This document shows, one piece after another, positions 15,501 to 30,366 of a stretch of DNA of 64,000 bases (positions are counted from its first letter, which is position 1; each line of letters begins with the position of its first letter). The stretch is from positions 1,209 to 65,208 of the forward strand of contig JBGOXX010000001.1 in NCBI GenBank assembly GCA_041479345.1, read 5' to 3'. Position numbers and translations under genes: made by a program. The DNA comes from Alphaproteobacteria bacterium. Lineage in GTDB: Bacteria; Pseudomonadota; Alphaproteobacteria; DATDPM01. The notes under the pieces are model-generated. The model was given only the letters and a program-made list of their open reading frames with translations, was not told where the DNA came from and ran no database searches.

Positions 15501-16110
15501 CGCCGGGAATCTTTTAGGCGACGAGCAATCGGGACATATCCGGGAAGTCGGCATCGAGCTCTATCAGAGTATGCTGGAACAGGCGGTCGCCGAAGTGCGC
15601 GGCGGCGGGCAAGCGGCGGAGGAATGGACGCCGCAGATTTCGATCAGCATGCCGGTTCTCATTCCGGAAAGCTACGTGGCCGATCTTGGTGTGCGGCTTG
15701 GGCTTTACCGGCGCATCGCCAATCTTCAGGAAGAATCCGAAATCGAGGCCTTTGCCGCCGAAATGATCGACCGCTTCGGGCCACTCCCGGCCGAGGCGGA
15801 AAATCTGTTTAGCGTGGTTGCCCTGAAGCGGCTATGCCGCGACGCCAATGTCGAAAAGATCGAGGCGGGGCCCCGGGGCGCCGTGCTGACCTTCCGCGAC
15901 AATCATTTCGCCAATCCCGCCGGGCTCATCGATTTCATCGCCCGCCACGCCGGGACGGTGAAGCTGCGCCCCGACCACAAACTGGTCGTTCAGCGGACCT
16001 GGGATACCGGAACGGACCGCGCCGCAGGCTTGCGCCAAATCCTCCGCGACATTGCGGCGATTGCCGCGCGGGCCAATTCCGTGGAAAAGAAGGGAGCAAA
16101 AGTCAGTTAG
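12598..16110 (+). CDS. mfd: transcription-repair coupling factor Mfd
   Basis: 1170 aa with GDVGFGKTEVA, DEEQHFGV, a UvrB-homology N-terminus and a TRG motif region. Confidence 0.95.
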   Translation: MENLRKFFETPGRVMIAGAPEGFDAQVVSRLAKKHGAERPRPILHVAEDEARMERMAECLRFYAPGLETLTFPAWDCLPYDRVSPNGEVVARRIETLAKLAGGIGEGEPLVVVTTVSAVLQRAPPRDLFREAIFAAGLGDRLSLDDLAGYLARNGYNRADTVREPGEYALRGGIVDLFPPGSEEPLRLDLFGDAIEAIRSFDPVTQRSDKRLERFSLKPVSEVLLTEESIGRFRSGYRDLFGAARRDDLLYEAVSAGRRYSGMEHWLPLFYERIETLFDYLPDAAVTLDPNAEDAVKARLDTIADYYAARVAPSPSDGEAPYRPLPPDRLYLGEAEWADLVAPRPVGVFSPFAAPEHAAGFVDAGGRPGRDFADVRARPDANVFDALRDLLTAEAKNGRHSIVACYSDGSRERFLGLLRDHGINGATLCASWHQVGHLAKESVALVILPIEHGFAAPDAFVVTEQDILGDRLARPPRRRRHAEAFIAEASNLGEGDFVVHVEHGIGRYEGLETLDVGGAPHDCLKLIYRDGDKLYVPVESIEVLSRYGSEGSAAELDKLGGAGWQARKARVRKRIKDIADQLLRIAAARELHDAPVLTPPEGLYDEFAARFPYAETDDQLTAIADSIADLASGRPMDRLICGDVGFGKTEVALRVAFTAVMSGVQVAVVTPTTLLARQHLITFRRRFEGLPVRIGSLSRLSSATEAASVKQGLANGSVDIVVGTHALLAKDLAFRNLGLLIVDEEQHFGVVQKERLKQLRANIHVLTLTATPIPRTLQMALAGVKEMSLIATPPVDRLAVRTFVLPFDPVVVREAILREHYRGGQTFYVCPRIEDLAGVAERIKKLVPEIRIATAHGKLAARQLETVMSEFYDGKFDLLISTNIIESGLDIPSANTLIVHRADMFGLAQLYQLRGRIGRSKQRAYAYLTLPPGRVLNPTAQRRLEILHALDSLGAGFSLASHDLDIRGAGNLLGDEQSGHIREVGIELYQSMLEQAVAEVRGGGQAAEEWTPQISISMPVLIPESYVADLGVRLGLYRRIANLQEESEIEAFAAEMIDRFGPLPAEAENLFSVVALKRLCRDANVEKIEAGPRGAVLTFRDNHFANPAGLIDFIARHAGTVKLRPDHKLVVQRTWDTGTDRAAGLRQILRDIAAIAARANSVEKKGAKVS

Positions 16111-17519
16111 CGCAAACTGTGCCGGGCGCGTTCGATGAGGCTCGCCGAGGTGTCGCCGGGAACGAAGTCGGCGCAGCCGGCTTGAAGCCAAACGGTGACC
16201 GCATCCTTCCCGCCATTGATGCCGAACTGAGTATTGAGGAGCACGCCGGAAATCCTATGCGCGACAATATCGGCGTCTTCCATTGCGGTTTCGGGAAGAA
16301 CGACGCAAAACTCTTTGTCACCAACCCGCGCCACCATGTCTTCGCTACGGACCAGCACCGAAATCCATTCCGCGACTTGGCGCAGGAGATCGTTAGCGGC
16401 GGCGGCACCGAAATCGCGGGCGACCCAGGCCAGGTTCTGGACCTGGAATGAGACCAAGGACAAATGCTTGCGCCAGGATGTGGACGCGGAAATCAAGCGA
16501 TCGAGATGAGCGAGCAAAAAGTCGCGGCCATAGACGCCGCCGGCCTCATGGATACCGGCCTTGCTCTGAATAGCCGCCAATTGATCGCGGATCGAAAGCC
16601 GCAGCTTTTGACGGTGCACCAGGGATTCGATCGCGGTATGAATTTCGGTTTGATCGAGCGGGCGAAGAATCAAGACGCTGGCGCCGCTCATATAAGGTTC
16701 TTCCACGCTGTCGAAAGCGCCGCGGTCGGCGATCAACAGGGCCGGAAGATTGAAAAGCCGGGTGTTGTTACGAATTTGGCCGCAGAGATAGAGCGCGTCT
16801 TCCGCATTGCCATCGATGACGATGACCAGGGCGTCATAGGATTCGCGATGGAGGAGGGATGCCGCGGCAAAAACATCCGGCGCGGTCACGAGGTCGAAAT
16901 CGCGACCGAGCGCTTTTTTGACATCGTCCAATTCTCGGTTGGCCGCCCCGGTGACGAGGATACGGCTGACTTCACCGGCCCGTGGCGCCGCAATCTTGCC
17001 GTCGATCTTCAAACCGAGAGCGCGGGCGGTGGCAATCCGATGCTCCAATTCCGTCCGCATGATCGCAAGCCGCACCAGCGGCTTGAGACGCAGAAGCAAG
17101 ATCGTCTCGCTGAAGGGTCCGATGACGACGTCATCGACGCCGGCATTCAGGGCCCGCCGCCGAAATGCCGGGGGAGCCAGTTCCGCCACCATGACGACGG
17201 GAATATGGGCGGTCTCGCCGCTCTTGAGGGAATGGGCAAGTTTGACGGCTTTTTCGCCGCCATCGCTGGCATCGATGAGAGCCAGGTCCGGATGTTCGTC
17301 CCGGCCCAGCTTGCGGGCGGTGACCGAGAAATCGCTGGCGGACGTGGCGTAACCCTGGCCGCGCAGCATTTTGGCAAGCTGACGCGCGCGGTTTTGGTCT
17401 TCGCTCAAAATCAAGATACGGGCGAGGCAGGCACCCGCAACCGCGGGCGCATTCGCGACGGTGCTGCGCGATGCTCCTTCACACGGAGTAAGACCGTCCG
17501 ATTTTCCCCAGAGACCCAT
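16107..17519 (-). CDS. PleD/PopA-like response regulator: REC-REC-GGDEF with a degenerate A-site
   Basis: Two receiver domains followed by a GGDEF fold. The active-site motif reads RVGDKEF instead of GG(D/E)EF, while an RxxD I-site (RSED) is kept 5 residues upstream. ATG at 17519. Confidence 0.8.
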   Translation of the reverse strand: MGLWGKSDGLTPCEGASRSTVANAPAVAGACLARILILSEDQNRARQLAKMLRGQGYATSASDFSVTARKLGRDEHPDLALIDASDGGEKAVKLAHSLKSGETAHIPVVMVAELAPPAFRRRALNAGVDDVVIGPFSETILLLRLKPLVRLAIMRTELEHRIATARALGLKIDGKIAAPRAGEVSRILVTGAANRELDDVKKALGRDFDLVTAPDVFAAASLLHRESYDALVIVIDGNAEDALYLCGQIRNNTRLFNLPALLIADRGAFDSVEEPYMSGASVLILRPLDQTEIHTAIESLVHRQKLRLSIRDQLAAIQSKAGIHEAGGVYGRDFLLAHLDRLISASTSWRKHLSLVSFQVQNLAWVARDFGAAAANDLLRQVAEWISVLVRSEDMVARVGDKEFCVVLPETAMEDADIVAHRISGVLLNTQFGINGGKDAVTVWLQAGCADFVPGDTSASLIERARHSLR

Positions 17520-17694
17520 GCTAGGACATATCCCCGAAATTGGTTACCAAATCGTGAGCAAATCCGCAGAAGCAAAAGATTTTTCAGGGAATTCTCCCCT
17601 GAATGATGGCTTAAAAATGCACCCCTTTAGCGGCCGCCGCCGGAAGGCTATTTTGATGGCTAGATTTCACGGAATTCGAATGAGGATTTGTGCA

Positions 17695-18225
17695 ATGCAA
17701 AAACGAAATGTCATTGCGCTTTGCCTGGCAACGATGCTGGCCATTCCAAGATTGGCGGTTGCGGCGGATTGTGCGGCGGGGATGCAGGATCAAGTCTATG
17801 CCGCATACGTCCGCACCGCACAACTGGAGCTCAATCTCCACGGTTACGATGCCGGGACCCCTGATGGAATGCCAAGTCCAAAGCTCGAATCAGCGGTCCG
17901 CGACTACCAGAAGGACGCCAAGCTTCCCGAGGACGGCTGCGTCAGTAAGGGCTTGGTGGATCATCTTGAATTCGTCTTGCCCCGGGTCGAGAAGGCGCGC
18001 AACCCGCGCGCCGAATCGGCGGTCGGGGAGGTGCAAAAGCTGTTGATGCAGCGCGGCTATTACAGGGGCACGGTGGACGGCATGAACGGATTGCAGACCC
18101 GCGATGCCATAAGGCGATTCGAAAAAGACGCCAACCTGCCGCTCACCGGCAAGGTCGACGAATCGCTGATCGCGAAAATCCAGGCGGCGGATCCGTCAAT
18201 TCGCGGCGATAAGACAGCTCCGTAA
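17695..18225 (+). CDS. secreted protein with two peptidoglycan-binding (PG_binding_1) repeats
   Basis: ATG at 17695 follows the GAGGA Shine-Dalgarno at 17682-17686. A signal peptide (MQKRNVIALCLATMLAIPRLAVA) precedes two LxxxGY..DG..G..T..AI..FQ/E...LP.TG repeats. Confidence 0.7.
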   Translation: MQKRNVIALCLATMLAIPRLAVAADCAAGMQDQVYAAYVRTAQLELNLHGYDAGTPDGMPSPKLESAVRDYQKDAKLPEDGCVSKGLVDHLEFVLPRVEKARNPRAESAVGEVQKLLMQRGYYRGTVDGMNGLQTRDAIRRFEKDANLPLTGKVDESLIAKIQAADPSIRGDKTAP

Positions 18226-18343
18226 TCCTTCAAATAAAAAGGATTTTCCCGCTGTAGAACCGCCGGCATTAACCGGATTTTAAGCATGACTAGCTCAACT
18301 GGGGGCTGTAGCTGGCGCTCCAGCGCGGGCGCTGGCGGGGGAT

Positions 18344-19453
18344 TTGCGGCATCGTGCCGCAATCGCGATAAGGCGGGCCACGACCGTGGCGGTTGCAGAC
18401 GTACTCACATCGCGCCGCATTTCCGCGGGCGCGGGAATTTCGCCGGAACCCGGATGGTTGACGCGCGGCCTCATTGCGCTCGACCGCCCCGGCCTGATCG
18501 CCGCCGTCAGCGTCGTCTCCATCGTCTTTTCGGAAATTATCGCAGGCATCATCAGCCTCACGATGCAGGGCACGATACCGGCGGTCGTCGTGGTAGCCGC
18601 CATCGTGACGCCGGGCATCGTGGCGCCGCTGGCGTCACTGCTGCTGGTCGCCGTCATCGATCACTTGAAACGTGAGGTCGACGACCGGAAGCGCGCCGAA
18701 GATGCGCTACGAATGGCCATTGAGATGGCCGAGCAGGCCAATCGCACGAAATCGACCTTTCTGGCCAATACCAGCCACGAATTGCGGACGCCGCTCAATG
18801 CCGTCATCGGCTTTTCCGATATGATTCGGGACGGCATGGGCAGCGGCGTTTCCTCCGACAAGCTGATCGAATACGCAACTCACATCAACGACTCCGGCCG
18901 TCATCTGCTGGCCGTGCTCAATGACATTCTCGATCTTTCAAAAGTTGAGGCCGGCAAGGTCGACCTCTTCGAGGAAGAAATCAATGTGGGCGCGATCATT
19001 CGCTCCTCCACGGCCCTGATGCGCGAGCGCGCCGATCACGGTTCCGTCGTGTTGGCGGCGGAGGTGCCGACAACCTTGCCGATGCTGTGGGCGGATCCCC
19101 GCAAACTCCGGCAGGTTCTGTTGAACCTGCTCTCGAACGCGATCAAATTCACCGCCGCCGGCGGCCAAGTGACGGTGGAAGCCGTCGCCGATTCGACCGG
19201 CGCCGTTTTCATTTCGGTGGCCGACACCGGCATCGGCATTGCCGCCAAGGATATCGCGCTGGCGCTTGCCCCCTTCAGCCAAGTCGACAGCGCACTCAAT
19301 CGCAAATTCGAAGGAACAGGGCTCGGTCTTCCCCTTGCCAAGGCCCTGGTCGAACTTCATCAAGGCCGGTTCGAGTTGGAAAGCGAGCCGGGCGTGGGGA
19401 CGACCGTCACCATATCGTTTCCGGCGGCGCGCGCCCGCCAGCGCGCGGCGTAA
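18344..19453 (+). CDS. membrane-bound sensor histidine kinase (HisKA + HATPase_c), PleC/DivJ/CckA-like core
   Basis: Two TM helices are followed by the H-box [24 protein letters not shown]1/G2 boxes and GTGLGLPLAKALVELHQG. The start is uncertain: TTG at 18344, with no early ATG. Confidence 0.85.
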   Translation: MRHRAAIAIRRATTVAVADVLTSRRISAGAGISPEPGWLTRGLIALDRPGLIAAVSVVSIVFSEIIAGIISLTMQGTIPAVVVVAAIVTPGIVAPLASLLLVAVIDHLKREVDDRKRAEDALRMAIEMAEQANRTKSTFLANTSHELRTPLNAVIGFSDMIRDGMGSGVSSDKLIEYATHINDSGRHLLAVLNDILDLSKVEAGKVDLFEEEINVGAIIRSSTALMRERADHGSVVLAAEVPTTLPMLWADPRKLRQVLLNLLSNAIKFTAAGGQVTVEAVADSTGAVFISVADTGIGIAAKDIALALAPFSQVDSALNRKFEGTGLGLPLAKALVELHQGRFELESEPGVGTTVTISFPAARARQRAA

Positions 19454-19507
19454 GATCCCGACGGTTTTTGCCCAACGGTTTCTGAGCGAAACTCACGCCC
19501 AAAATGA

Positions 19508-19543
19508 AAAGCCCGCGCGGCTTATGCCGCGCGGGCTTTTGCA
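19508..19543. terminator. bidirectional intrinsic terminator between the convergent kinase gene and cspA
   Basis: Perfect 11-bp GC stem gcccgcgcggc / gccgcgcgggc (19511-19521 and 19526-19536) with the 4-nt loop ttat. It is flanked by aaaa upstream and tttt downstream. Confidence 0.6.
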
Positions 19544-19579
19544 TCGACGGCTCCCACTGAGGGAGCCGAGAAACCGATA

Positions 19580-19792
19580 TTAGTCGGCAGGTCCGAGATC
19601 GACGGCCTTTGCACCGCGCGGCTCGTTCAGCACTTGGTAGGTCACGCGTTGACCTTCCATGAGCGAGCGCATGCCTGCACGTTCGACGGCCGTGATATGG
19701 ACGAACACATCCTTATCGCCCTGACCGGCGTCTGGGGTGATGAAGCCGTAGCCCTTGGTGGCATTGAACCACTTAACTGTTCCGGTAGCCAT
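19580..19792 (-). CDS. cspA: cold-shock protein, CspA family
   Basis: 70 aa with GTVKWFNATKGYGFITPD and the RNP motifs KGYGFI / VFVHI. Confidence 0.9.
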   Translation of the reverse strand: MATGTVKWFNATKGYGFITPDAGQGDKDVFVHITAVERAGMRSLMEGQRVTYQVLNEPRGAKAVDLGPAD

Positions 19793-20092
19793 GATTACTC
19801 CTTAATTTAACAAACAACAAAAACGCCGGCCGAGAGCGGCCGACGTTGTACGGGTCTCACAATTTCGGGAAGTAACCAGGCTAGGCCGGTTAGCTTTTAT
19901 GCATGGGCTCTGGAGCACGGTACGCCGATAACTTGTGTGACTTCGGGCCTTATATGGGCGGTTCTTTGCCGCCGCGCAACAAAAATCGACGATTATTAAC
20001 CGAGAACACCACAAGAACTCCCCGGGAAATCTGCGATTCGCGCGGGTAGCGGCGGGTTTCGCAAGAGCGTATGATTTTGGTGACGAGGGGCC
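19793..20092. promoter_or_regulatory. 300-bp divergent leader/promoter region, probably a long cspA 5' UTR
   Basis: Non-coding gap between the cspA start (19792) and the divergent CBS gene (20093). Cold-shock genes typically carry long structured 5' UTRs. Only spurious antisense ORFs cover it. Confidence 0.4.
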
Positions 20093-20536
20093 ATGAAGCA
20101 CAGAACCGTTTCGGAATTTGTGCGCGACCAAGTCGTCGCCGAACTTCCCCCCACCGCCACGGTGCGGGAAGCGGTTAGACTCATGGCCGACCGCCATATC
20201 GGCGCCGTCACGGTCACCGAAACGGGACGTCTGTCCGGCATCTTTACCGAACGCGACATGGTGAGCCGGGTCGCGGCACCGGGAAAGGACCCCGACCGCA
20301 CCACGCTCGCCGCCGTCATGACCGGGCATCCCCAGACGATTGCCGCGGATGCCTCGACCATCGAGGCTCTCCGGATAATGCAGGCGGGCGGGTTCCGTCA
20401 TTTGCCGGTCGTACATCACGGCAAACTTGTCGGCGTCTTGTCCTTGCGTGATTTCACCGGCACCGATTTGATCGAGATCGAACGCGCCTCCGATATCGAG
20501 CGGGCGGTGGCCGAAGGCGGGATACTCCACGACTGA
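20093..20536 (+). CDS. CBS domain-pair protein
   Basis: ATG at 20093 with a GACGAGGGG Shine-Dalgarno. Two CBS motifs are present (HIGAVTVTE...LSGIFTERD and RHLPVVHHGKLVGVLSLRD). Confidence 0.85.
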   Translation: MKHRTVSEFVRDQVVAELPPTATVREAVRLMADRHIGAVTVTETGRLSGIFTERDMVSRVAAPGKDPDRTTLAAVMTGHPQTIAADASTIEALRIMQAGGFRHLPVVHHGKLVGVLSLRDFTGTDLIEIERASDIERAVAEGGILHD

Positions 20537-20650
20537 CCGCCGGCCGCGGCTCGCCGGCTCCGCCGTTTTTCCTAATATTTCAATAAAATCCGCCGCCTCC
20601 AAATCAGGCAGTTTGTCTGCACATTAACGGCATCTTTACCGTCCGGAACG

Positions 20651-22903
20651 ATGATCCGCTGGGGGCAGACGCTCCGGCATCCCCCACAGGGTCCGGGGCC
20701 AGGCAGACGAGACGTTAACGTGCGAAAACAAACCGCGGAGCTCCGCGAAAATATCCGGGAGCCGGCTGATGCAGCCGCGCTCCCCATCGGTGTTCCGGAT
20801 TCATCGGCGGCCATGGCGGGCACCGAACGGATTCGCGACTTCGCGGAACTGGCCTCCGAATGGTTTTGGGAGACCGGGCCGGACCTCCGCTTTACCTTTC
20901 TGTCGGAGCGCTTCGAACAGATCACCGGACTTTCTCGCGACTCGGTCCTCGGCCATACCATCCTTGAAGCCGCCCGTGCCGATCTGCGCGATCCGCGTTG
21001 GCAGCGCCATCTTGAAGATTTCTTAGCTCAGCGCCCGTTTCACGATTTCCAATTCGCGACCCAGCTGCCATCCGGAGAAACCCGGCAGTTGCGGGTCAAC
21101 GGCAAGCCCTACCACGATACCCAGGGACGGTATCTCGGCTATCGCGGAACCGGTTCCGATGTGACCGATTCCGAGCGCACTCATGAAAGCCTGTTTGCGG
21201 TCAAAGCGCGGCTCGAACATCTGCTCAACACCAGCCCCGCGATGATCTACAGCTTCAAGGCAGGCGACAATCACGCCGCGACGTTTGCCAGTAACAACAT
21301 CAAGACACAGCTCGGCCACGACCCCCACGAATTCCTCGACGACCCCGGATTCTGGACTCAGCACATCCATCCCGAGGATGCGCCGCGCGTGTTCGCCGAT
21401 ATGGCGAAGTTGTTCAAAAACGGCCGCCATTCTCAAGAATACCGGTTCCGTCACAAGGACGGCAGCTACCGTTGGATGCGCGACGAGTTGGTTCTCGTCG
21501 AAGACAATGACGGAACACCGTTGGAGGTTGTCGGCTATTGGGTCGACATCACCGACCGCAAGCGGGCCGAAGAGGCAGTCCGGGAGAGCGAAAAGGCGCT
21601 GAAGCGGACGAACCGCGCCCTGCAAGCCGTCAGCGAATGCAACGAGGCGCTGGTTCGAATCACCAACGAATCGGAACTCTTGCGCGAGGTGTGCCGTATC
21701 ATCGTCCAATCCCGCAATCATCGTATGGCTTGGGTCGGCCTGACGGAAAATGACGAGGCAAAGACGGTCAGGCCCGCCGCGAACTGGGGTTCGGACGACG
21801 GCTATCTGAGCGAAATCAAGGTGAGTTGGGACGATCACGCGAAGGACCTGGGCCCGGTCGCCCGCGCGATCGTGACCGGCAAGCCTTATGTCGTCCGGGA
21901 CACGGCGAGCGATTCGAATTTCGCGGCGTGGCGCGACGCGGCCTTGAAGCGCGGATTCCTTTCGGTCATCGCCCTGCCGCTGCAAGTCAACGATCGGCCG
22001 ATCGGCTGCTTGGCCATTTATGCGCCCGCCTCCGATGCCTTCGATGACGTGGAAGTCAGGCTCTTGGCCGGCCTCGCCGACAATCTCGCCTATGGCATTT
22101 CCACGATCCGGACGCGCGCCGACCGGGCCCGGGCCGAAGACGCCGTCCGGGAATATGCCGAAAAGCTCGAACGAAGCAATCGCGAGCTCCAGGATTTCGC
22201 CTATGTGGCATCGCACGATCTTCAGGAGCCGCTGCGGAAGATCGAAGCCTTCGGCGACCGGCTCAAAACGAAATGCTCCAGTACTCTTGGCGAAGACGGT
22301 CAGCTTTACCTCGATCGCATGCAACGCGCATCCGCGCGCATGCGGGCTCTGATCAATAGCTTGCTCACCTATTCCCGCATCACGACGAAAGCTCAACCCT
22401 TCGAAGTCCTGAACTTGACCGAGGCGGCGAAGGACGCGGCGTCCGATCTTCAGATGCGCATCGAGAAAGAAAACGGGCGTGTCGAAATCGCCGACATGCC
22501 GACGATCGATGCCGATGCGACGCAAATGCGGCAGCTCTTCCTCAACCTGATCGGCAACGGCCTCAAATTCCATAAGGCGGAGGAAGCCCCGGTCGTTCGC
22601 GTTTCGGCCGAACTCTGCGGCCGCGACGGCGGCCCGATCGACGGCGCCGATCCGCAGGATCAGTGGTGCCGCATTGCCATCGCCGACAACGGAATCGGCT
22701 TCGACGAAAAATACACCCACCGAATCTTCAGCATGTTTCAGCGGCTGCATGGCCGCAACGAATACGAAGGCACGGGGATCGGACTTGCGACCTGCCGCAA
22801 AATTGTCGAGCGGCATGGTGGCTCGATCACCGCCAAGACGGCGCCTGGAATGGGTGCCACGTTCATTGTGCTAGTTCCGGCACGTCAGGCCCATAAGGAG
22901 TAA
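20651..22903 (+). CDS. PAS-PAS-GAF sensor histidine kinase (phytochrome-type HisKA with the ASHDLQEPLR H-box)
   Basis: PAS repeats, a GAF domain, the H-box YVASHDLQEPLRKI, and an HATPase_c region (IADNGIGFDEKYTHRIF, GTGIGLATCRKIVERHGG). An alternative start lies at 20813. Confidence 0.85.
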   Translation: MIRWGQTLRHPPQGPGPGRRDVNVRKQTAELRENIREPADAAALPIGVPDSSAAMAGTERIRDFAELASEWFWETGPDLRFTFLSERFEQITGLSRDSVLGHTILEAARADLRDPRWQRHLEDFLAQRPFHDFQFATQLPSGETRQLRVNGKPYHDTQGRYLGYRGTGSDVTDSERTHESLFAVKARLEHLLNTSPAMIYSFKAGDNHAATFASNNIKTQLGHDPHEFLDDPGFWTQHIHPEDAPRVFADMAKLFKNGRHSQEYRFRHKDGSYRWMRDELVLVEDNDGTPLEVVGYWVDITDRKRAEEAVRESEKALKRTNRALQAVSECNEALVRITNESELLREVCRIIVQSRNHRMAWVGLTENDEAKTVRPAANWGSDDGYLSEIKVSWDDHAKDLGPVARAIVTGKPYVVRDTASDSNFAAWRDAALKRGFLSVIALPLQVNDRPIGCLAIYAPASDAFDDVEVRLLAGLADNLAYGISTIRTRADRARAEDAVREYAEKLERSNRELQDFAYVASHDLQEPLRKIEAFGDRLKTKCSSTLGEDGQLYLDRMQRASARMRALINSLLTYSRITTKAQPFEVLNLTEAAKDAASDLQMRIEKENGRVEIADMPTIDADATQMRQLFLNLIGNGLKFHKAEEAPVVRVSAELCGRDGGPIDGADPQDQWCRIAIADNGIGFDEKYTHRIFSMFQRLHGRNEYEGTGIGLATCRKIVERHGGSITAKTAPGMGATFIVLVPARQAHKE

Positions 22904-22908
22904 CCTCG

Positions 22909-23376
22909 ATGAAAGCCAATGGAAAACCCATCATCATCCTGATGGCGGATGATGATTCCGACGACCGCATGCTGGTCAAGGACGCGTTCGAAGAAAGCCG
23001 CCTCAACAACGATTTGCACTTCGTCGAGGACGGCGAGCAGCTCATCGATTACCTGTACCGTCGCGGAAATTTTGCCCACCTCAAGGGCCAGCCTTATCCG
23101 GGCCTCATCCTTCTCGACCTCAACATGCCGAAGAAAGACGGACGCGAGGCCTTGGCGGAAATCAAGAGCGATCCGGACCTACGCCGCATCCCGATCGTGA
23201 TTCTGACGACCTCGCGGGCGGAAGAAGACATTCTGCGGACCTACGATCTCGGCGCGAACTCCTTCATCACCAAGCCGGTGACGTTCGAAAGCCTGGTTCA
23301 GGTGGTGCAGGTTCTCGGCAATTATTGGGTCGAGATCGTCGAGCTTCCTTCGATCTGCGCGCCGGCGGCCGCGTAA
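22909..23376 (+). CDS. single-domain response regulator (CheY/Rcp1-like receiver)
   Basis: ATG at 22909 is preceded by the AAGGAG Shine-Dalgarno at 22895-22900. Receiver motifs are ILMADDDSDD, ILLDLNMPKKDG and a T...K pattern. Confidence 0.9.
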   Translation: MKANGKPIIILMADDDSDDRMLVKDAFEESRLNNDLHFVEDGEQLIDYLYRRGNFAHLKGQPYPGLILLDLNMPKKDGREALAEIKSDPDLRRIPIVILTTSRAEEDILRTYDLGANSFITKPVTFESLVQVVQVLGNYWVEIVELPSICAPAAA

Positions 23377-23397: not shown

Positions 23398-24597
23398 ATG
23401 CCGGCCGCACCCATCCGCATCCTGCTCGTTGAGGACGATGAGGACGATTACCTCATCACCCGCGATCTCCTGTCCGAGATCGCGGACGTCCAATACGACA
23501 TCAAATGGGCGCCGACGTTCGACGACGGTTTGGCCGCACTTGACTGCGACGCCGACAGCCCGCCGACCTTTGACATTTGCTTGATCGATTACCGGCTCGG
23601 CGAAAAGAGCGGCATCGATCTGCTGCGCACGACCGTTCAGCGCGGATGCCTGATGCCGGTCATTTTGCTGACCGGGGCCGGCGACCGGGATATCGATATG
23701 GCGGCGATGGAAGCCGGCGCCGCGGACTTCCTCGACAAGACGACGTTGACCGCCCCGTTGCTGGATCGTTCGATCCGTTATGCGATCGCCCAGTCACGGG
23801 ATCGCCGGGCGCTGATCGAGAAATCCCATTCGCTGTCTTCGGCGAAGGAACAAGCCGAGATCGCCAATCGCGCCAAGTCGGAATTCCTCGCCAATATGAG
23901 TCACGAGCTGCGCACGCCGCTCAACGCCATCATCGGGTTTTCCGAGATCATGAAGGACGAGCTCTCGGGACCGATCAACAATCCCTATTACCGCGAATAT
24001 GTGCGCGACATTTACGCCAGCGCCAACCATCTGCTCGAAGTCATCAACGACATCCTCGACGTGTCGAAGGTCGAAGCCGGCAAAATCGAGCTTCAGGAAT
24101 CGCCGGTCGAAATCGATTCGACGATTCAAGCGGCGGTGCGGCTGGTCATCGAGCGCGCCCGCGAAGCCGATATCCGCGTCGATGTGACTTTGCCGCAGCC
24201 CTTGCCCCGGCTTTACGCCGATGCCCGCCGCGTCAAGCAGATGATGCTCAATTTACTGTCGAACGCCGTGAAATTTACGCCGGCGGGCGGAAGCGTCAAA
24301 GTCAACGCCCATGCCGACGATACCGGGCTTTCGATCTCGGTGGCCGATACCGGCATCGGCATCGCCGAAGACAAGATCGCGCTGGTCTTCACGCCGTTCG
24401 CGCAAGTCGACGGTTCGTTGAAGCGCCGCTATGAAGGCACCGGCCTCGGCTTGTCGCTAACCAAGGGATTGATCGAGATGCATGGCGGAACGATCGTGAT
24501 GGAAAGCGCGCCGGGGCAGGGGACCACGGTCACGCTGTGGTTCCCCCGTGAGCGCCTGGTTTCCGAAACGGCAGTCCCGGCGGCGCGCACCGCGTAA
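23398..24597 (+). CDS. hybrid REC-HisKA-HATPase histidine kinase (N-terminal receiver)
   Basis: Receiver domain ([10 protein letters not shown]...LIDYRLG) followed by the H-box [21 protein letters not shown] and an HATPase_c region [18 protein letters not shown]. Confidence 0.9.
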
Positions 24598-24661
24598 CGC
24601 CGGTACTGCCATATCCAACGCTTGAGGGTTCCCGGCCCTCGCGCCGTTGAAAGGACGGCAA

Positions 24662-26593
24662 ATGGCCCATTCCGGCTACGATGTCATGGCGAACTTCGCC
24701 GACGCGCAATCGACGGAACCATTTGGCGCGCTCTTCGACAACGACTTCCAGCCGATGCTCCTGATCGACCCGGAAACGACGGCGATCGTCGACGCCAACA
24801 GCGCAGCCTGCGCATTTTACGGGTACAGCCGAGCCGAGTTCGTCCGTCTCAAGAAGACGAACATCAACGTGGCGCCGGAATCCGAGATAAGAGACCTGGT
24901 CAAGAACGCGGTCGTGGGCCACCACACGCGATCTCAACTCCAACATCGTCTGGCCAATGGCGATATCCGCGACGTCGAAGACTGGATCGGGATCGTCGCC
25001 GTCGGCCGGCGGCAACTGCTCTGCTCGATCGTCCGGGACGTCACGGACCAGCGGCGCACCGAAGCGGCGTTGCGGGCGAGCCAGGTGATGCTCGCCACGG
25101 CCGAGCGCATCGCCCAAGTCGGCAGCTGGGATTGGGATATTGCTGGAAATACCTTGGTCTGGTCCGAGGAACAGTGCCGCTTGTTCGGCTACGCGCCGGA
25201 GGACTTCAACGAAAAGTACGAAGGCTGGATGGTGTGCATCCATCCCGACGACCGGAAACGCGTGCAGGAGGCGATCGACGCCGCGGTGGCCGGCCAGAAG
25301 GTCTACGACATCGAATATCCGATCATCGGCCCGGGCGGCACCAAGCGATTCATTCACGCCAGAGGCGAAGTGTTCCAGGACAAGGACGGCAAATCGGTTC
25401 GCATGGTGGGGACCTGCCACAACATTACCGAGCGCCGGTCCGCCGAGGAAACGCTCCGTCAATCGCAAAAGCTCGAATCGGTCGGCCAATTGACCGGCGG
25501 CATCGCCCACGATTTCAACAATCTGCTGGGTGTCATTATCGGCAATCTGGACCTGATCCTCGACCGGAGGAAGCTCGACGCCGGTCTCAAAAAATTAGTC
25601 CAGGCCGCCCTCGATGCCGCGTTGCGCGGCGGCGATCTCACCCAGCGCCTGCTCGCGTTTTCGCGCAAGCAAACCCTGCAATCCAAAGTCATTTATCTCG
25701 GCGAGCGGTTGATTCAGGCCGGCACCTTGTTGCGGCGGACGCTGGGCGAGCAGATCACCGTGAAGGTCCGCGCCGCACCCGATCTCTGGCCCGTGGTCGC
25801 GGATTCCTCGCAAATCGACAATGTGATTCTCAATTTGGCGATCAATGCCCGCGACGCGATGCCCAAAGGCGGGGCCATCACCATCGACGTGTCCAATGTC
25901 CGGTTCGACGCGGACTATGCCGCCCGGAATGTCGAAGTCATTTTGGGCGATTACGTCCTTCTTGCCGTCACCGATACCGGCGAGGGCATGCCGCCGGACG
26001 TGCTCGAGCGCGTCTTCGAGCCGTTTTTCACGACCAAAGAGGTCGGCAAGGGATCGGGTCTTGGCCTCAGCATGGTCTACGGCTTCGTCAAGCAATCGAA
26101 CGGGCACATCAAGATCGAGAGCGCGGTTGGCCACGGCACGAGTGTGAACATCTACTTGCCGCGCGCCGCTGCGGCCGCCGCCGCCGAGGCGGCGCCCGAA
26201 AATCGAAATGTGAATCTATCCGCCAATGGCGAAGTGATCCTGGTGGTCGAAGACAATGACAGCGTGCGCGCCGTCGCCGTCAATCAACTGGCCAGTCTCG
26301 GCTATCGGACGTTGAAGGCGGAAAGCGGCGAAGCGGCTCTCGCCTTGCTCGACAAGCATCCCGAAATCGATCTGATGTTCTCGGACGTGGTCATGCGCGG
26401 CGGAATGAACGGCTATGAGCTGGCGCTCGAAGCCTGCAAGCGCCGCCCCGGCCTCAGGGTTCTTCTGACCTCCGGCTGTGAAATGAAATCCGCCGACGGC
26501 CTCGACGGTGTCGAGAAATTCGAACTGCTGAAAAAACCCTATCGCAAGCGCGATCTCGCCCAAATGCTCTGCCACCTTCTGGCGCTGAATTAG
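24662..26593 (+). CDS. PAS/PAC sensor hybrid histidine kinase with a C-terminal receiver
   Basis: ATG at 24662 with an AAGGA Shine-Dalgarno; the ORF track starts at TTG 24647. Two PAS/PAC domains, the H-box [14 protein letters not shown], HATPase_c, and a C-terminal REC ([11 protein letters not shown]...[13 protein letters not shown]). Confidence 0.85.
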
Positions 26594-26637
26594 ACTCCGG
26601 ACAGTCCTGCTCTTGCTGCGTTCGCGGTTCGTGAAAC

Positions 26638-26727
26638 TGGCGGATGGGGTGAGATTTGAACTCACGGAACCCTTGCGGGTTCTCCGGTTTTCAAGACCGG
26701 TGCCTTAAACCGCTCGGCCACCCATCC
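26638..26727 (-). tRNA. tRNA-Ser (anticodon TGA), type II with a long variable arm, CCA encoded
   Basis: Reverse strand: GGATGGG acceptor / CCCATCC, D-arm GCCGAGCGGTTTAAGGC, anticodon stem CCGGT/ACCGG with loop CTTGAAA (UGA anticodon), an 18-nt variable arm, T-arm GTGAG TTCAAAT CTCAC, discriminator G and CCA. Confidence 0.85.
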
Positions 26728-27002
26728 CGCTTGTCGAGCCATGGCTTAACAATTCCGGCGCAGGCAGGGAAGGGGCGATTGGCTGCGTTACCGATTGAGA
26801 AGAGCGTAGGAATAGGGAGAATTGTTGGTTGGTGATCCGGCAATGGGTCGATGCGGCCCAGATTTCGGCGCTCACTCGCGCGCCACAAGCAGACGCGAAT
26901 AGCGCTCGACCGCGCAATCGGTCGCGGTAGGTCATGGGGGTGAGTGCTACAGCTACACCTCTGTTATAAGTGATTCTTCGAATCCCGGCGGGGCCAATTA
27001 CC

Positions 27003-27662
27003 ATGCCATCCAGACCGGCGGCTGCCGCCGAACCTATTCCGATCGAGCAGCTTGAGACCAAGCGGCTTCAGGTCAAACGCCTTTCGCGCCGGAGCCTGCC
27101 ACGAGATACGGCCGCGCTGGCACGTTTCCTCATCGGCAAGACGCTGGTTCACGACAGCGCCGAGGGAAGAATGAGCGGCCGCATCGTCGAAACCGAGGCC
27201 TATCCGCCCGGCGATTCCAGCGGCCACGCCTTCATCGGCCCGACCACGCGGAACCGCTCGCTGTTCCTCAAACACGGCCACGCTTACGTCTATTTGGGCT
27301 ACGGCGTTTGGTTTTTGCTCAACGTATCGAGCGAATCCCCTGGTGTGGGCGCCGGCGTTCTGCTGCGCGCCGTCGAACCCCTGGAAGGAATCGAATTGAT
27401 GCAGCGCCATCGCGGCACCCTGCGGCTGCGGGATTTGGCGCGCGGCCCCGGCCGGCTTGCCGCGGCGTTTGGGATCGACCGAAAATTCGACGGCACGGAT
27501 TTATGCGGGAAGGGACCGCTCTGGCTCGGCACGGCGGTGGCTCCTGTCGGCCGCATCGGCGCCAGCCCGCGCATCGGCATCTCGCGGGAGATCAACCGGC
27601 GCTTACGTTTTTATGAGCGCGGCAATCCCCATGTGAGCGGACCGAAGCGGCTGACAGTCTGA
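27003..27662 (+). CDS. DNA-3-methyladenine glycosylase (Mpg/AAG family)
   Basis: LPRDTAALARFLIGKTLVH...GRIVETEAYPPGDSSGHAF...LFLKHGHAYVY is the typical Mpg family core. ATG at 27003; the ORF track starts at GTG 26970. Confidence 0.8.
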   Translation: MPSRPAAAAEPIPIEQLETKRLQVKRLSRRSLPRDTAALARFLIGKTLVHDSAEGRMSGRIVETEAYPPGDSSGHAFIGPTTRNRSLFLKHGHAYVYLGYGVWFLLNVSSESPGVGAGVLLRAVEPLEGIELMQRHRGTLRLRDLARGPGRLAAAFGIDRKFDGTDLCGKGPLWLGTAVAPVGRIGASPRIGISREINRRLRFYERGNPHVSGPKRLTV

Positions 27663-27704
27663 ATTACGCTGATTGCGCCGCGACGACGATGCGGCGGCGT
27701 GAAC

Positions 27705-28133
27705 TTACGATCGGGCTAGCTTGGCGGGGAGGCTCCCGGCATTTTCCACGCCGCCTTCGGCCAGCCAAACCAATGCCTGTTCGCAGGTATTGAAGGTCGC
27801 GAAATTGTGCGTTTTGAAATGAACGGCGATAGCCTTGACGACCTGGTCCGTCCATTCGTCGCGCGAAACAATGGCGATGCGTTTGCCGTTATCGTTTTTT
27901 CCGTTGGCAAACTCATACCATCGGTTCGAAATTTCTCTGACATCGTCAATTCCGATGGAGCCCGTATACAGCGTTTGGTCGGTGAGGCAATTGTAGGTAA
28001 GAACTTCCGGGTGCCGGCGCCAGATTTCCGGAATCTGCGAAACCGCCATCTCTCCGGTCACGTCCCCAGTGTAACGAGTGGTCAGCAGACGGCGCTGATG
28101 ATCAATCTCCCAGGTAATCTCCGACACTGGCAT
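27705..28133 (-). CDS. hypothetical protein, weakly STAS/SpoIIAA-like (DUF3478-like)
   Basis: The C-terminal pattern RIAIVSRDEWTDQVVKAIAVHFKTHNFATF...ALVWL resembles the SpoIIAA-like DUF3478 family from memory. No enzymatic motifs were found. The start is uncertain (28133 or 28163). Confidence 0.45.
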   Translation of the reverse strand: MPVSEITWEIDHQRRLLTTRYTGDVTGEMAVSQIPEIWRRHPEVLTYNCLTDQTLYTGSIGIDDVREISNRWYEFANGKNDNGKRIAIVSRDEWTDQVVKAIAVHFKTHNFATFNTCEQALVWLAEGGVENAGSLPAKLARS

Positions 28134-28283
28134 CCCCCGAAGCACAGACAGAGCGGCACACAATCTAACGGTGCCAGCACCGGCGGACCAGCTAAGAAAT
28201 CAGTTGAGTAAAATATGATAAGTCGGTTGTATTTTTAGAAGTTTTCCAGCCGGAACCTATGACCGGCAGGGGCCGGCGCGATG

Positions 28284-28481
28284 TCAACCATTGCGGTTCG
28301 CGTCTATAGGCACGCAATCGTGGCGGCCGGACAAAAAGCAATCTTGAACCTTCCTATCCGCAGCTAAGTTTTGAACCTGCCGGTAGCCGCCGAGGATCAA
28401 CAGCAAGACGATGATCGCGGCCCCGATATTGGCCGCAACGACAGATCGATCGTCGTTGCGGCCGTTTCGGTCATCGGACAT
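28284..28481 (-). CDS. possible small single-TM membrane protein (65 aa)
   Basis: ATG at 28481 with an AGGAA-like Shine-Dalgarno. One hydrophobic helix (AAIIVLLLILGG). It lies downstream of, and co-oriented with, the secreted His-rich protein gene. Support is weak. Confidence 0.2.
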   Translation of the reverse strand: MSDDRNGRNDDRSVVAANIGAAIIVLLLILGGYRQVQNLAADRKVQDCFLSGRHDCVPIDANRNG

Positions 28482-28525
28482 TTTCCTGATCGCGTTTCCG
28501 GTCGCGCGCCATGCAAACGGCTGGG

Positions 28526-28933
28526 CTACATCGCGCCCTTAAGAGCCGCCGCGGAATCGGCGGCGTCTTTTTTCGCTTCGGTCAGATCGTTCGAGGCGAG
28601 GCCCGCCACGGCTCTCTGCAAGCCGTCGTTCAACGCCTTCTTTTTCGCGGCATCCGCGGTGTCCGGAATGGCGCCGCTACCCATGCCGTCACAAGGGTTC
28701 ATCTGTTTGGCGTCGAAACCTTCGCCTTTCGGCCCGACCAGACAATTCACGGCATGATGCAGATGCGCATGAACCGTATCGATGATCGTGGCCTGAGCGG
28801 CAAGTCCTGCATGCTGTGCCGCGGTCGCCGCTTCCTTGGCGGCGTCGGCCGCCCACGCCGGCGAGGCCGCCAGCGTTACGGCCGTGACAAGAACGAGACA
28901 ATGCTGCATCGCGGATATGGATTTGTTCCTCAT
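28526..28933 (-). CDS. secreted/periplasmic Ala-rich protein with a His cluster and a Cys pair (135 aa)
   Basis: ATG at 28933 with an AGGGAG Shine-Dalgarno. The signal peptide is MRNKSISAMQHCLVLVTAVTLAASPAWA. The mature part contains HAHLHH and NCLVGPKGEGFDAKQMNPCDGMGSG. Confidence 0.55.
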   Translation of the reverse strand: MRNKSISAMQHCLVLVTAVTLAASPAWAADAAKEAATAAQHAGLAAQATIIDTVHAHLHHAVNCLVGPKGEGFDAKQMNPCDGMGSGAIPDTADAAKKKALNDGLQRAVAGLASNDLTEAKKDAADSAAALKGAM

Positions 28934-29133
28934 GCTGGGTCTCCCTGATTGATGGGTGCATGCGCCGGCATTACCGGGGCTGCCTATAGACCGGTGCCGC
29001 CCGGCCTTCATTCCATAGCCTTCAATTTCCGGGCCTTTATCGGACCCGGCCGAGCGGTCGGTTAAGGCCGTTTAACAAACCGTATACCTATTTGCTGTCT
29101 AATCGAGGGCGTTTCCAGCCACTCCAAAAGGCC

Positions 29134-30366
29134 ATGATTTCTGCCCGTTCCGTCACACCAGGCTACGCCGAACTTGCCGGCGGGACGCCGCTGAACGACT
29201 GGACGACGCCGGCGGCGGCGCTTGGCCCGCAATCGACCTGCGCGGAAGCTTCCGATGTCTTTTCCGAAAACCCCGAGCTGACGGCGCTCGCCGTTGTCGA
29301 CGGCTCCCGAATCGTCGGCCTCGTGACCCGCAGCGAGCTGTTCGCGGCGCTTTCCGACCGGTTCGCGGTCGCCGCGGCGGCCGACGAGCCGGTCGCAAAA
29401 ATTATGAATCGCCGGCCCCTCGTTATCGAAGCGAGCTGCGATTTTGAAAAACTGATCGACATGGTCGCATCCAAACGCTCCGACGCCTTCGCCGCCGGAT
29501 TTATCGTGACGCAAAACGGCGTCTATCGCGGCATCGGGGTCGTCCGATTGCTGATGGGTGCCGCCGCCGACCGGCTCGCCCAGCGGCATACCGAAATCCA
29601 GCGCGCACAGATGGAAGCCGAGCAGTCGAGCAAGAGCAAGGCGCAATTCCTTGCCGCGGTCAGTCACGAACTGCGCACGCCCTTGAACGCCATCATTGGA
29701 TTTTCGCAGATCATTGCCGAAGGCACTTTCGGTCCGAATGACTTCGAACGCTATCGCGGCTATGCCGCGGATATTCAAAATAGCGGCGAGCATCTGCTGG
29801 AGATCATCAACGACATTCTCGATATCTCCAAAATCGAATCCGGCAAATTGGTCTTGCACGAGGAATTCCTGGACATCGAACCTCTCGTCGACGTCACGCT
29901 GCGCCTGGTGCGCCAACGCGCCTTGGAAAATCAGGTGGCGCTCGCCGTTCAGGTCGGTGGGCCGCCCTTCCGCCTGCGCGGCGACAAGCGGTTGCTTCGC
30001 CAGCTCCTGCTGAACCTTGTCGCCAACGCCGTAAAATTCACGCCCCCCACCGGCAAGGTGACGGTCTCCGCCCATCGAACACCGGATGGCGGTTTGTCCG
30101 TCGTCGTCGAAGATACCGGCATCGGAATCGCCAGCGAAGACATCCCGAAGGCGATGATGCCATTCGGGCAAGTGGATAGCCGGTTGGGACGCAAATACGA
30201 AGGCACCGGGCTCGGCCTTCCGTTGGCCAAGGCAATGGCGGAAGCCCATGGCGGTACGCTCAAATTGGAAAGCCAGCTCGGCGTTGGAACGATGGTGACG
30301 GTGCGGCTGCCCGCCGAACGCTTGATCGAATTGCCGGAAGACGGACTCGGGAGCGAAGCGGTATGA
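29134..30366 (+). CDS. cytoplasmic CBS-domain sensor histidine kinase
   Basis: ATG at 29134 with an AAAGG Shine-Dalgarno; the ORF track starts at TTG 29092. An N-terminal CBS pair precedes the H-box [21 protein letters not shown] and HATPase_c GTGLGLPLAKAMAEAHGG. No TM segment. Confidence 0.85.
   Translation: MISARSVTPGYAELAGGTPLNDWTTPAAALGPQSTCAEASDVFSENPELTALAVVDGSRIVGLVTRSELFAALSDRFAVAAAADEPVAKIMNRRPLVIEASCDFEKLIDMVASKRSDAFAAGFIVTQNGVYRGIGVVRLLMGAAADRLAQRHTEIQRAQMEAEQSSKSKAQFLAAVSHELRTPLNAIIGFSQIIAEGTFGPNDFERYRGYAADIQNSGEHLLEIINDILDISKIESGKLVLHEEFLDIEPLVDVTLRLVRQRALENQVALAVQVGGPPFRLRGDKRLLRQLLLNLVANAVKFTPPTGKVTVSAHRTPDGGLSVVVEDTGIGIASEDIPKAMMPFGQVDSRLGRKYEGTGLGLPLAKAMAEAHGGTLKLESQLGVGTMVTVRLPAERLIELPEDGLGSEAV

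Follow-up and report, generated by a model that had tools for sequence, protein, structure and literature searches.

We propose that the signalling region at positions 16107-30366 of the window (the whole 64,000-nucleotide stretch of DNA analysed here) is quite probably a conserved core-chromosomal neighbourhood of an uncultured alphaproteobacterium, in which independent two-component modules lie side by side, that three kinases with similar cores in it (HK1, HK3 and HK5) are not local duplicates, and that the HK2-receiver-HK3(-HK4) operon is its sole demonstrable multi-gene unit. In this same explanation, HK1 and HK5 would be orphan kinases, with their partners encoded at other loci. The finding is an ordinary one, because the look-alike kinases are old and independent members of one huge subfamily that are merely neighbours.

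Gene content of the region

The first-pass annotation had counted five histidine kinases, four receiver-containing proteins, two CBS proteins, cspA and a PG-binding protein in these 14 kb, and Pfam agrees with this inventory (Table 1). The receiver-containing proteins are the REC-REC-GGDEF protein, the single receiver, HK3 and HK4, whereas the two CBS proteins are the stand-alone CBS-pair protein and HK5 (all Pfam). The signalling cluster itself is real and is also conserved in relatives; its description as one island does not hold, as a tRNA-Ser gene and the gene for a methylpurine DNA glycosylase split the HK2-HK4 operon from HK5.

Table 1. Features of the signalling region and its downstream border, with coordinates in the window
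Feature	Coordinates	Strand	Basis and remarks
REC-REC-GGDEF protein, PleD architecture, PopA-like degenerate active site	16107..17519	-	Pfam REC and GGDEF
PG_binding_1 protein	17695..18225	+	Tandem domain, PF01471 94 bits in two stretches; one N-terminal hydrophobic segment; start from the gene call in L001
HK1, orphan membrane kinase	18386..19453	+	Pfam and hydropathy; hydrophobic block at residues 42-109 leads straight into HisKA-HATPase; start of the gene caller (longest ORF 18344)
cspA-type cold-shock protein	19580..19792	-	PF00313 83 bits
Stand-alone CBS-pair protein	20093..20536	+	PF00571 83 bits in two stretches
HK2, soluble PAS-PAS-GAF-HisKA-HATPase kinase	20651..22903	+	Pfam; phytochrome-type H-box ASHDLQEPLRKI; opens the trio; start by gene caller 20813
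Rcp1-type single-domain receiver	22909..23376	+	Middle gene of the trio, 5 bp past HK2
HK3, receiver-kinase (REC-HisKA-HATPase)	23398..24597	+	Pfam; His169; 43.6 kDa; last gene of the trio, 21 bp past the receiver gene
HK4, soluble hybrid kinase (PAS-PAS-HisKA-HATPase-REC)	24662..26593	+	Pfam; alternative start 24647
tRNA-Ser (TGA)	26638..26727	-	ARAGORN; Rfam 61.8 bits; marks the operon end
Methylpurine DNA glycosylase, housekeeping	26970..27662	+	PF02245 187 bits
HK5, orphan soluble CBS-kinase (CBS-HisKA-HATPase)	29134..30366	+	Pfam; alternative start 29092; stop codon and S8 protease start overlap
Secreted S8 subtilase	30363..31724	+	PF00082 103 bits; 4 bp (ATGA) overlap with HK5

The REC-REC-GGDEF protein resembles PleD and PopA in that it aligns full-length to PleD and keeps an intact RxxD I-site (RSED), and it scores 195 bits against the NCBIfam PleD family model (cut-off 474). 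It differs from PleD in that GGEEF has become GDKEF, with the loss of one metal-binding Asp, and in that the Thr and Lys of REC1 are replaced by Ala and Gly. Because of these substitutions, the protein probably lacks cyclase activity and is unlikely to accept phosphate in the normal way.

Relationships and partners of HK1, HK3 and HK5

Over approximately 240 aa, the cores of HK1 and HK3 are 53% identical, those of HK1 and HK5 51% and those of HK3 and HK5 50% (E 1e-72 to 1e-90), whereas the DHp and CA cores of the same three kinases are 26-28% identical to those of HK2 and HK4. Such mutual identity is far above chance and therefore reflects real homology, and the earlier assignment of the three kinases to one HisKA subfamily with different inputs is borne out: membrane in HK1, receiver in HK3 and CBS in HK5, whose CBS domains we take to be likely adenosyl-ligand sensors. 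The sequence motifs given for them need minor correction, since the H-box of HK5 does not fit FLAN[TM] and its G2 region reads ESQLGVGTMVT rather than ES.PG.GTTVT. The H-boxes are indeed alike (SHELRTPLN in HK1, HK3 and HK5), but this likeness is a signature of the subfamily. The residues NAGF at the alpha-1 positions H+7, 8, 11 and 12 were found in 349 of 357 sampled cores (98%), and the alpha-2 motif is conserved across the whole subfamily in the same 357 cores. At E<=1e-30, a search with the HK3 core yields 348,101 representative clusters, and cores of 44-55% identity also occur in Flavobacteriaceae, Omnitrophota and Methanoperedens. HK1, HK3 and HK5 are ancient paralogs of a very large HisKA subfamily that includes PleC, DivJ and PdhS.

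The first-pass annotation had gone further and called the three cores PleC/DivJ/CckA-like, with a shared downstream regulator. Membership in the same subfamily as PleC and DivJ is correct, but a specific likeness to them is not apparent, as the models of TorS, LuxQ, HrmK and BarA score equally. Matches to the NCBIfam models of DivJ (201-224 bits, cut-off 1000) and PdhS (194-226 bits, cut-off 2000), like those to the other four, all lie 3-10 fold under the curated cut-offs. The comparison with CckA has to be transferred to HK4, whose best match in the PDB is CckA 5idj (188 bits). Of the three kinases, HK3 alone was searched at full length against the PDB; it matches 52 sequences there at E<=1e-10, and 5idj is not among them. 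In addition, no CckA model appears in the NCBIfam top 25 for HK1, HK3 or HK5. As for the shared regulator, the sequence gives no pointer to any particular one. NAGF and the H-box do not discriminate, because they are common to 98% of the sampled members of a family that comprises more than 300,000 clusters; the local single receiver is of the Rcp1 type and matched to HK2, and the PleD-like protein has a degenerate receiver.

A different reading accepts that the three kinases are ancient paralogs and holds that they nevertheless converge, as PdhS-type kinases whose common target would be an unlinked homologue of DivK and/or PleD, in the manner of the multiple PdhS kinases of Agrobacterium and Brucella. 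This would fit the DivJ and PdhS model matches, the JGI label 'PleC' carried by many orthologs of the CBS-kinase and the presence of a PleD-architecture protein near HK1, and, as in the PdhS family (PleC, DivJ, PdhS and CbrA), the three proteins carry the H-box of the broad HisKA subfamily. We nevertheless regard it as unlikely. The DivJ and PdhS scores lie 4-10 fold under the equivalog cut-offs, they and the H-box and NAGF residues are as unspecific as described above, the closest solved structure to HK3 is 7z8n (an entry cited in a Pseudomonas GacS paper), the local PleD-like receiver is without the conserved Thr and Lys, and HK3 shares its cassette with a kinase of another class and with an Rcp1-type receiver. 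The sensor architectures of HK1, HK3 and HK5 differ from those of the PdhS family, and no DivK-type partner lies nearby.

Far less probable still is a recent local duplication that produced three paralogous cores, which then gained different inputs and came to act on a single downstream regulator. The location of all three genes within 12 kb, a mutual core identity well above that to the other two local kinases and the identical alpha-1 specificity positions speak for such an event. However, each kinase has its own old series of orthologs with the same architecture, also in distant Alphaproteobacteria: 66-99% and then 45-50% (in Pelagibius and Rhodospirillaceae) for the REC-kinase HK3, 53-97% for the membrane kinase HK1, and 56-99% and then 40-48% (in Ferrovibrio, Govanella and Rhodospirillaceae) for the CBS-kinase HK5. 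These ortholog groups also occur apart in distant genomes, where the HK2-receiver-HK3 trio is found without HK1 or HK5 and the CBS-kinase alone, its distant orthologs being orphans in unrelated contexts.

The cores themselves point in the same direction. Among the cores sampled, they are not mutual closest relatives, a result that the annotation itself had named as contrary to a 'locally expanded' family, and hundreds of kinases with other sensors from other taxa are closer to each core than the three are to one another. When cores only were searched with phmmer, the window paralogs ranked 163-293 among the 357 cores sampled. Single-core matches to the HK3 core at 59-61% identity reach 300-308 bits, compared with 240-259 bits between the window paralogs, and more than 100 clusters with PAS, PAS_7, PF14827 sensor-domain, DAHL or HAMP have cores 55-61% identical to HK1, above HK3 and HK5. 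None of 100 neighbour-joining bootstraps joined any two window kinases without foreign-architecture kinases, in a distance tree of 250 columns whose sample was enriched for the best matches of each query and whose deep branching order among groups is loose. Without resampling, the tree places the HK1 and REC-kinase groups within one clade of 148 that includes 26 foreign-architecture kinases, and because of this shared clade HK1 and HK3 may be somewhat nearer to each other, with HK5 more distant. At the nucleotide level, nothing points to a recent duplication or to gene conversion: blastn identities are 65-77%, in patches only, and the longest exact shared word is 12-14 nt.

Conservation of the neighbourhood

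The gene order from mfd through the REC-REC-GGDEF protein, the PG-binding protein, HK1, cspA, the CBS-pair protein, HK2 and the receiver to HK3 is retained in the relatives L004 and L008 (77-78% protein identity), the comparison with L008 reaching just past HK3, where that locus stops. Further downstream, the L004 contig also has HK5, the S8 protease, SLT and RlpA, including the adjacency of HK5 and the protease. The cspA protein is 91-100% identical to the copies in relatives. Housekeeping genes flank the region, with mfd on one side and an SLT-rlpA-dacC-holB-metG block on the other, and GC content is uniform across it (0.59-0.64).

A mobile or horizontally transferred origin of the 14 kb as a signalling island is very improbable: a tRNA-Ser gene lies within the region, the relative L007 (95%) has an integrase block beside the tRNA-Ser position and HK4 is restricted to close relatives, but the uniform GC, the housekeeping flanks and the mfd-to-rlpA order conserved at 77-78% protein identity argue against this, and no integrase or repeat boundary was found in the window. 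At most, variation would concern HK4 and the segment next to the tRNA, and the tRNA-Ser gene is likely an integration site in a relative. HK4, absent from L004 and L008, is a lineage-specific addition to the operon, and because of this absence from relatives at 77-78% it is not the essential CckA.

The HK2-receiver-HK3 cassette and known systems

Within the conserved neighbourhood of independent modules, the trio of HK2, the Rcp1-type receiver and HK3 is kept in eight relatives (L004, L008, L006, L009, L010, L091, L092 and L093), in the last six of which both H-box types of its kinases are also retained. Judged from these comparisons, it is a cassette conserved across Alphaproteobacteria and the one demonstrable functional unit here. 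The H-box of HK2 includes ASHDLQEPLR, and the best solved relatives of its core in the PDB are 8f71 and then bacteriophytochromes. The single receiver matches 5te9 (139 bits), Rcp1 (125), RcpA (116) and 4zyl, i.e. RPA3017 (112), whereas CheY reaches approximately 45 bits; it thereby appears to be matched to HK2.

A relay may be modelled by analogy with BphP2/BphP3-LhfD-LhfE-LhfA of R. palustris, all partner assignments being based on adjacency and family resemblance. A cytoplasmic signal perceived via the PAS and GAF domains would lead to autophosphorylation of HK2. From HK2, the phosphate would go to the Rcp1-type receiver, serving as a sink or adaptor, to the N-terminal REC domain of HK3, or to both. 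Depending on its state, this REC domain would gate the kinase core of HK3, and HK3 in turn would phosphorylate an unlinked output regulator.

The hybrid kinase HK4 shares with CckA the H-box AHDFNNLL, PAS domains and a C-terminal receiver. It differs in that it is soluble by prediction, with no predicted transmembrane segment, and in that its scores against the NCBIfam CckA models (305-386 bits) fall below the cut-off of 1000.

In Rhodopseudomonas palustris, the Lhf relay consists of BphP2/BphP3, LhfD (RPA3017), LhfE (RPA3018) and LhfA, and LhfE combines REC and a kinase domain (His185) with a redox-sensing Cys262 (PMC6879726). The gene order is the same in both systems: a kinase with a phytochrome-type DHp, then an Rcp1-type receiver (the local one matching RPA3017 as given above), then a receiver-kinase of approximately 42-44 kDa. 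HK3 also consists of REC and kinase, with His169 in place of His185 of LhfE, a likeness at the level of architecture. HK2 has PAS_3, PAS_4 and GAF_2 only in Pfam, with neither PHY nor the bilin-lyase PAS_2, and on this evidence it therefore does not qualify as a photoreceptor; its counterparts in relatives carry PAS_7 or PAS only. No REC-HTH protein of the LhfA type was found in the region or in the flanks of the relatives' loci. Cysteines of HK3 occur at positions 50, 61 and 84 only, all in the receiver, and because its core is without Cys there is no counterpart of Cys262. In addition, a CckA-type hybrid kinase (HK4) is appended here. With respect to the Cph1-Rcp1 pair, HK2 is without a photosensory PAS-GAF-PHY module, but its H-box and core are nearest to those of bacteriophytochrome kinases among the named solved structures, and the adjoining receiver is Rcp1-like.

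Gene content and spread of the region

Independent two-component genes make up the region, a conserved cluster of an ordinary kind. Its gene order was derived from an ORF listing together with Pfam and NCBIfam scans, which bear out the inventory of the first-pass annotation (five histidine kinases, here HK1-HK5, four receiver proteins, two CBS proteins, cspA and a PG-binding protein). By hydropathy, a hydrophobic block is present in HK1 only (residues 42-109, without a sizeable loop), and HK2-HK5 are soluble. Neither of the two small genes between the DNA glycosylase and HK5 has a Pfam family above threshold: one has a sub-threshold SpoIIAA/STAS-like match only (19 bits), and the other, encoding an Ala-rich protein, matches nothing in Pfam or NCBIfam; gene calls exist for both in the contig L001 too. 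An Rfam gathering scan of 15000-32000 returned the tRNA and nothing else, and consensus scans for promoters and terminators over 15500-32000 yielded about as many matches as shuffled sequence, operon limits having been set without these consensus scans.

Genes of the region and its flanks, in window coordinates
Feature	Position	Strand
mfd	12598-16110	+
REC-REC-GGDEF protein	16107-17519	-
PG_binding_1 protein	about 17695-18225	+
HK1	18344/18386-19453	+
cspA	19580-19792	-
CBS-pair protein	20093-20536	+
HK2 (PAS-PAS-GAF-HisKA-HATPase)	20651-22903	+
Single receiver, 155 aa	22909-23376	+
HK3 (REC-HisKA-HATPase)	23398-24597	+
HK4 (PAS-PAS-HisKA-HATPase-REC)	24662-26593	+
tRNA-Ser(TGA)	26638-26727	-
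Methylpurine DNA glycosylase	26970-27662	+
Small gene between DNA glycosylase and HK5	27705-28163	-
Small gene between DNA glycosylase and HK5	28526-29011	-
HK5 (CBS-HisKA-HATPase)	29134-30366	+
S8 subtilase, secreted	30363-31724	+
SLT_2, RlpA, PBP5/DacC, holB, metG	after S8 subtilase	
hflX, trkA, ntrX, ntrY, ntrC, probably ntrB	farther along the window	

The exact HK3 protein is present in MAG assemblies, and gene order is identical on the sole contig long enough for comparison (L001). In two relatives with HK3 proteins 77-78% identical (L004 and L008), the order mfd, REC-REC-GGDEF, PG-binding, HK1, cspA, CBS, HK2, REC and HK3 is retained; the L004 contig continues downstream with HK5, S8, SLT, RlpA and PBP5, and the L008 locus stops just past HK3. 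HK4 is absent from both, and the tRNA/MPG segment is replaced by other genes in L004. In a 68% relative (L006), PG-binding, cspA, CBS, HK2, REC and HK3 are retained, and HK1 and HK5 are absent from that locus. In a 95% relative (L007, 13455-21200), HK4 is followed by a block of a phage-type integrase, an HTH_17 protein and a resolvase at the site of the window's tRNA-Ser(TGA), which lies 44 bp past the HK4 stop codon; in this relative, insertion of a mobile element near the tRNA-Ser position is probable.

The distant orthologs of the CBS-kinase stand alone, close to htpG, to hrcA-grpE-dnaKJ or to ferredoxin genes. Distant HK1-like genes have unrelated surroundings as well, and a conserved partner for HK1 was rejected. 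Two of the orphan CBS-kinase orthologs adjoin heat-shock genes (htpG in one case and hrcA-grpE-dnaKJ in the other). The stop codon of HK5 and the start codon of the S8 subtilase gene overlap (ATGA, 30363-30366) and the pair is retained in L004, but HK5 and the protease were rejected as a conserved module given the unrelated contexts of the distant orthologs. The separate contexts across relatives indicate that the three groups of HK1-, HK3- and HK5-like kinases travel independently. Horizontal transfer of the whole region was rejected on synteny and on composition, which runs across the region without a break (GC of approximately 61% in the window). Farther along, a second two-component block on the reverse strand (49183-55537) contains NtrX, NtrY and NtrC by Pfam and, in the ntrB position, an ORF (54389-55537) matched by kinase cores in phmmer, with trkA and hflX after the block; this standard alphaproteobacterial arrangement confirms the core-chromosome context. 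The proximity of HK1, HK3 and HK5 is a lineage-level arrangement in the core chromosome, neither an island nor an expansion.

Relationships of the HK1, HK3 and HK5 cores

The DHp-CA cores of HK1, HK3 and HK5 had been interpreted as a locally expanded family of PleC/DivJ/CckA-like paralogs. Their similarity is real (core identity of 53% for HK1/HK3, 51% for HK1/HK5 and 50% for HK3/HK5, with E 1e-72 to 1e-90), whereas the HK2 and HK4 cores are only 26-28% identical to each of the three. The H-box and G2 motifs described as near-identical also hold, apart from small departures in the HK5 H-box and a G2 region that reads ESQLGVGTMVT in HK5. At the DNA level, the three genes show 65-77% identity in patches only and a longest exact common word of 12-14 nt, which rules out recent duplication or gene conversion.

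In searches of a collection of 5.8 billion proteins, each of the three kinases tops its own ortholog series of matching architecture: REC-kinases 99% down to 66% identical to HK3, with a more distant set at 45-50% in Pelagibius, Rhodospirillaceae and others; membrane kinases 97% down to 53% identical to HK1; and CBS-kinases 99% to 56% identical to HK5, with a more distant set at 40-48% in Ferrovibrio, Govanella and Rhodospirillaceae. Directly below the HK1 orthologs, the matches listed include more than 100 clusters with cores 55-61% identical to HK1 and with different sensor domains (PAS, PAS_7, the PF14827 sensor domain, DAHL and HAMP), and these foreign-sensor clusters are nearer to the HK1 core than HK3 or HK5 is. 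When cores excised from all 357 fetched proteins were re-scored against one another, HK3 and HK5 ranked 163rd and 280th for HK1, HK1 and HK5 ranked 217th and 293rd for HK3, and HK3 and HK1 ranked 225th and 285th for HK5. A tree was built by neighbour joining from Kimura distances over 250 columns and rooted on HK2. A clade of any two window kinases free of foreign-architecture kinases was found in none of its 100 bootstrap replicates; the clade joining two window kinases contained a median of approximately 135 foreign-architecture kinases over these replicates. Judged by the ranks, the bootstrap counts and the separate ortholog series, the three cores are not each other's closest relatives, and local expansion is not supported.

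With HMMER, the HK3 core was run exhaustively against 1.84 billion cluster representatives, of which 348,101 matched at E<=1e-30. Most of the top full-sequence scores belong to very long proteins (about 600-2400 aa, with one of 390 aa) that have at least two separately matched stretches, probably tandem kinase cores of the HK3 subfamily in one polypeptide. Because giant two-core proteins with inflated summed scores top the list, the comparison was confined to single-core matches, which reach 59-61% identity and 300-308 bits, compared with 240-259 bits between the window paralogs. Even Flavobacteriaceae, Omnitrophota and Methanoperedens archaea have cores 44-55% identical to HK3, and the best match in the genome-contig search was a MAG at 78%. 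The likeness of the three cores is conservation inside one HisKA subfamily, not HisKA-wide conservation.

Family labels and the question of a shared regulator

The DivJ and PdhS equivalog models of NCBIfam score 194-226 bits on the HK1, HK3 and HK5 cores, the TorS, LuxQ, HrmK and BarA models score equally on the same cores, and all of these scores are 3- to 10-fold under the curated cut-offs. Of the three kinases, the one compared with solved structures was HK3, at full length; its top match was 7z8n (176 bits), an entry cited in a paper on Pseudomonas GacS, followed by HK853 (approximately 151 bits), the hybrid kinase 6qrj (147 bits) and DivL (119 bits), and CckA (5idj) was absent from its 52 matches at E<=1e-10. 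HK4, which has the H-box AHDFNNLL, finds its best solved-structure match in CckA 5idj (188 bits) and scores 305-386 bits with CckA models (cut-off 1000), so that the label "CckA-like" fits HK4 and not HK1, HK3 or HK5. The HK2 core (ASHDLQEPLRKI) is nearest to 8f71 and then to bacteriophytochrome kinases among solved structures. The different H-boxes and structure matches of HK2, HK3 and HK4 imply that three DHp classes are present in one operon.

Over its full length, the REC-REC-GGDEF protein can be aligned with PleD. In its first receiver the conserved Thr and Lys are replaced by Ala and Gly, respectively, and GGEEF has become GDKEF with loss of a metal-binding Asp, while the RxxD inhibitory I-site is kept (RSED). 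Such a pattern is characteristic of PopA, a c-di-GMP effector, and not of a cyclase that can be phosphorylated, and from these residues the protein is a candidate PopA-like c-di-GMP effector. Its gene runs on the other strand from mfd, with a 4-bp overlap at the mfd stop codon, and adjoins mfd in relatives too.

In the alignment of 357 cores, the consensus of the H-box and, beyond it, HLL.lINDILDLSKiEaGk is kept across all architecture groups. The alpha-1 positions H+7, H+8, H+11 and H+12 reportedly dominate partner specificity, as concluded from Laub-lab rewiring of EnvZ and PhoQ. These positions read N-A-G-F in 349 of the 357 cores, so that agreement at them between HK1, HK3 and HK5 says nothing about a common partner. 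PdhS-family kinases are proposed to act, all of them, on DivK and PleD (PMC7003649), and DivK/PleD partners of HK1, HK3 and HK5 may be encoded elsewhere, although nothing in the window specifically favours them. With the receiver of the PleD-like protein degenerate and the alpha-1 residues family-wide, the shared downstream regulator that had been implied is not identifiable.

Thus, one subfamily with different inputs is what survives of the earlier interpretation, and the expansion, the CckA likeness and the common regulator do not. A common H-box and G2 box in neighbouring alphaproteobacterial kinases is a subfamily signature, which attests neither local expansion nor a common target. The result is of little weight for discovery, with the conserved cassette as its one reusable point.

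The HK2-receiver-HK3 cassette and the Lhf relay

HK2, the single receiver and HK3 (20651-24597) are the one conserved unit of the region, and this trio has the same order and short gaps in all REC-kinase ortholog contexts examined (L004, L006, L008, L009, L010, L091 from Pelagibius sp., L092 from Rhodospirillaceae SYSU D60014, and L093). Its first gene encodes a sensor kinase of varying PAS/GAF/PAS_7 inputs, whose H-box (ASHDLQEPLR) is of the phytochrome type and whose core is 41-71% identical to that of HK2; the second encodes a receiver of approximately 150 aa, 45-86% identical to the window's; and the third encodes, in all of these contexts, a REC-kinase with the H-box of the HK3 subfamily. 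No linked output regulator was found in any of them. The 155-aa receiver scores 139 bits with 5te9, 125 with Rcp1, 116 with RcpA and 112 with 4zyl (RPA3017), versus approximately 45 with CheY, and belongs unambiguously to the phytochrome-associated Rcp1 type. At L093 (GCA_050260515.1, labelled Gemmatimonas sp.), the trio lies between metG and tatD and adjoins holB, a housekeeping block (metG/holB) that is also the one downstream in the window; this alphaproteobacterial-looking gene order suggests that the contig may be mis-binned.

The nearest described system is the Lhf relay of R. palustris, in which the single-domain receiver LhfD (RPA3017), a proposed phosphate sink, takes its phosphate from BphP2 and BphP3, the 42-kDa receiver-kinase LhfE (RPA3018, His185) acts below the phytochromes, and activation of the REC-HTH regulator LhfA needs LhfE (PMC6879726). 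By analogy, control of HK3 by HK2 would run via the small receiver, the receiver at the N-terminus of HK3 or both, and HK3 would signal to an unlinked regulator. Several differences exist: Pfam finds neither a PHY nor a PAS_2 photosensory module in HK2, no LhfA-like gene is linked to the trio, Cys is absent from the HK3 core, and HK4 is appended to the trio in the window's lineage. The likeness of HK3 to LhfE is one of gene organisation.

A wider and rather doubtful reading is that the trio represents a widespread non-photosensory Lhf/phytochrome relay, in which a kinase of one DHp class would control a kinase of another via the latter's N-terminal receiver, with the small receiver as phosphate sink and the output always unlinked; in the window's lineage it would also be wired to the CckA-type hybrid kinase HK4, and HK1 and HK5, which have all four alpha-1 specificity residues as in HK3, could share the output regulator of HK3. 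As a conserved cassette, the trio could offer a simple system for studying how one kinase controls another. In several alphaproteobacterial lineages it combines the Lhf gene organisation of R. palustris with sensors other than phytochromes, and it is modestly interesting as a further multi-kinase relay of an already known sort.
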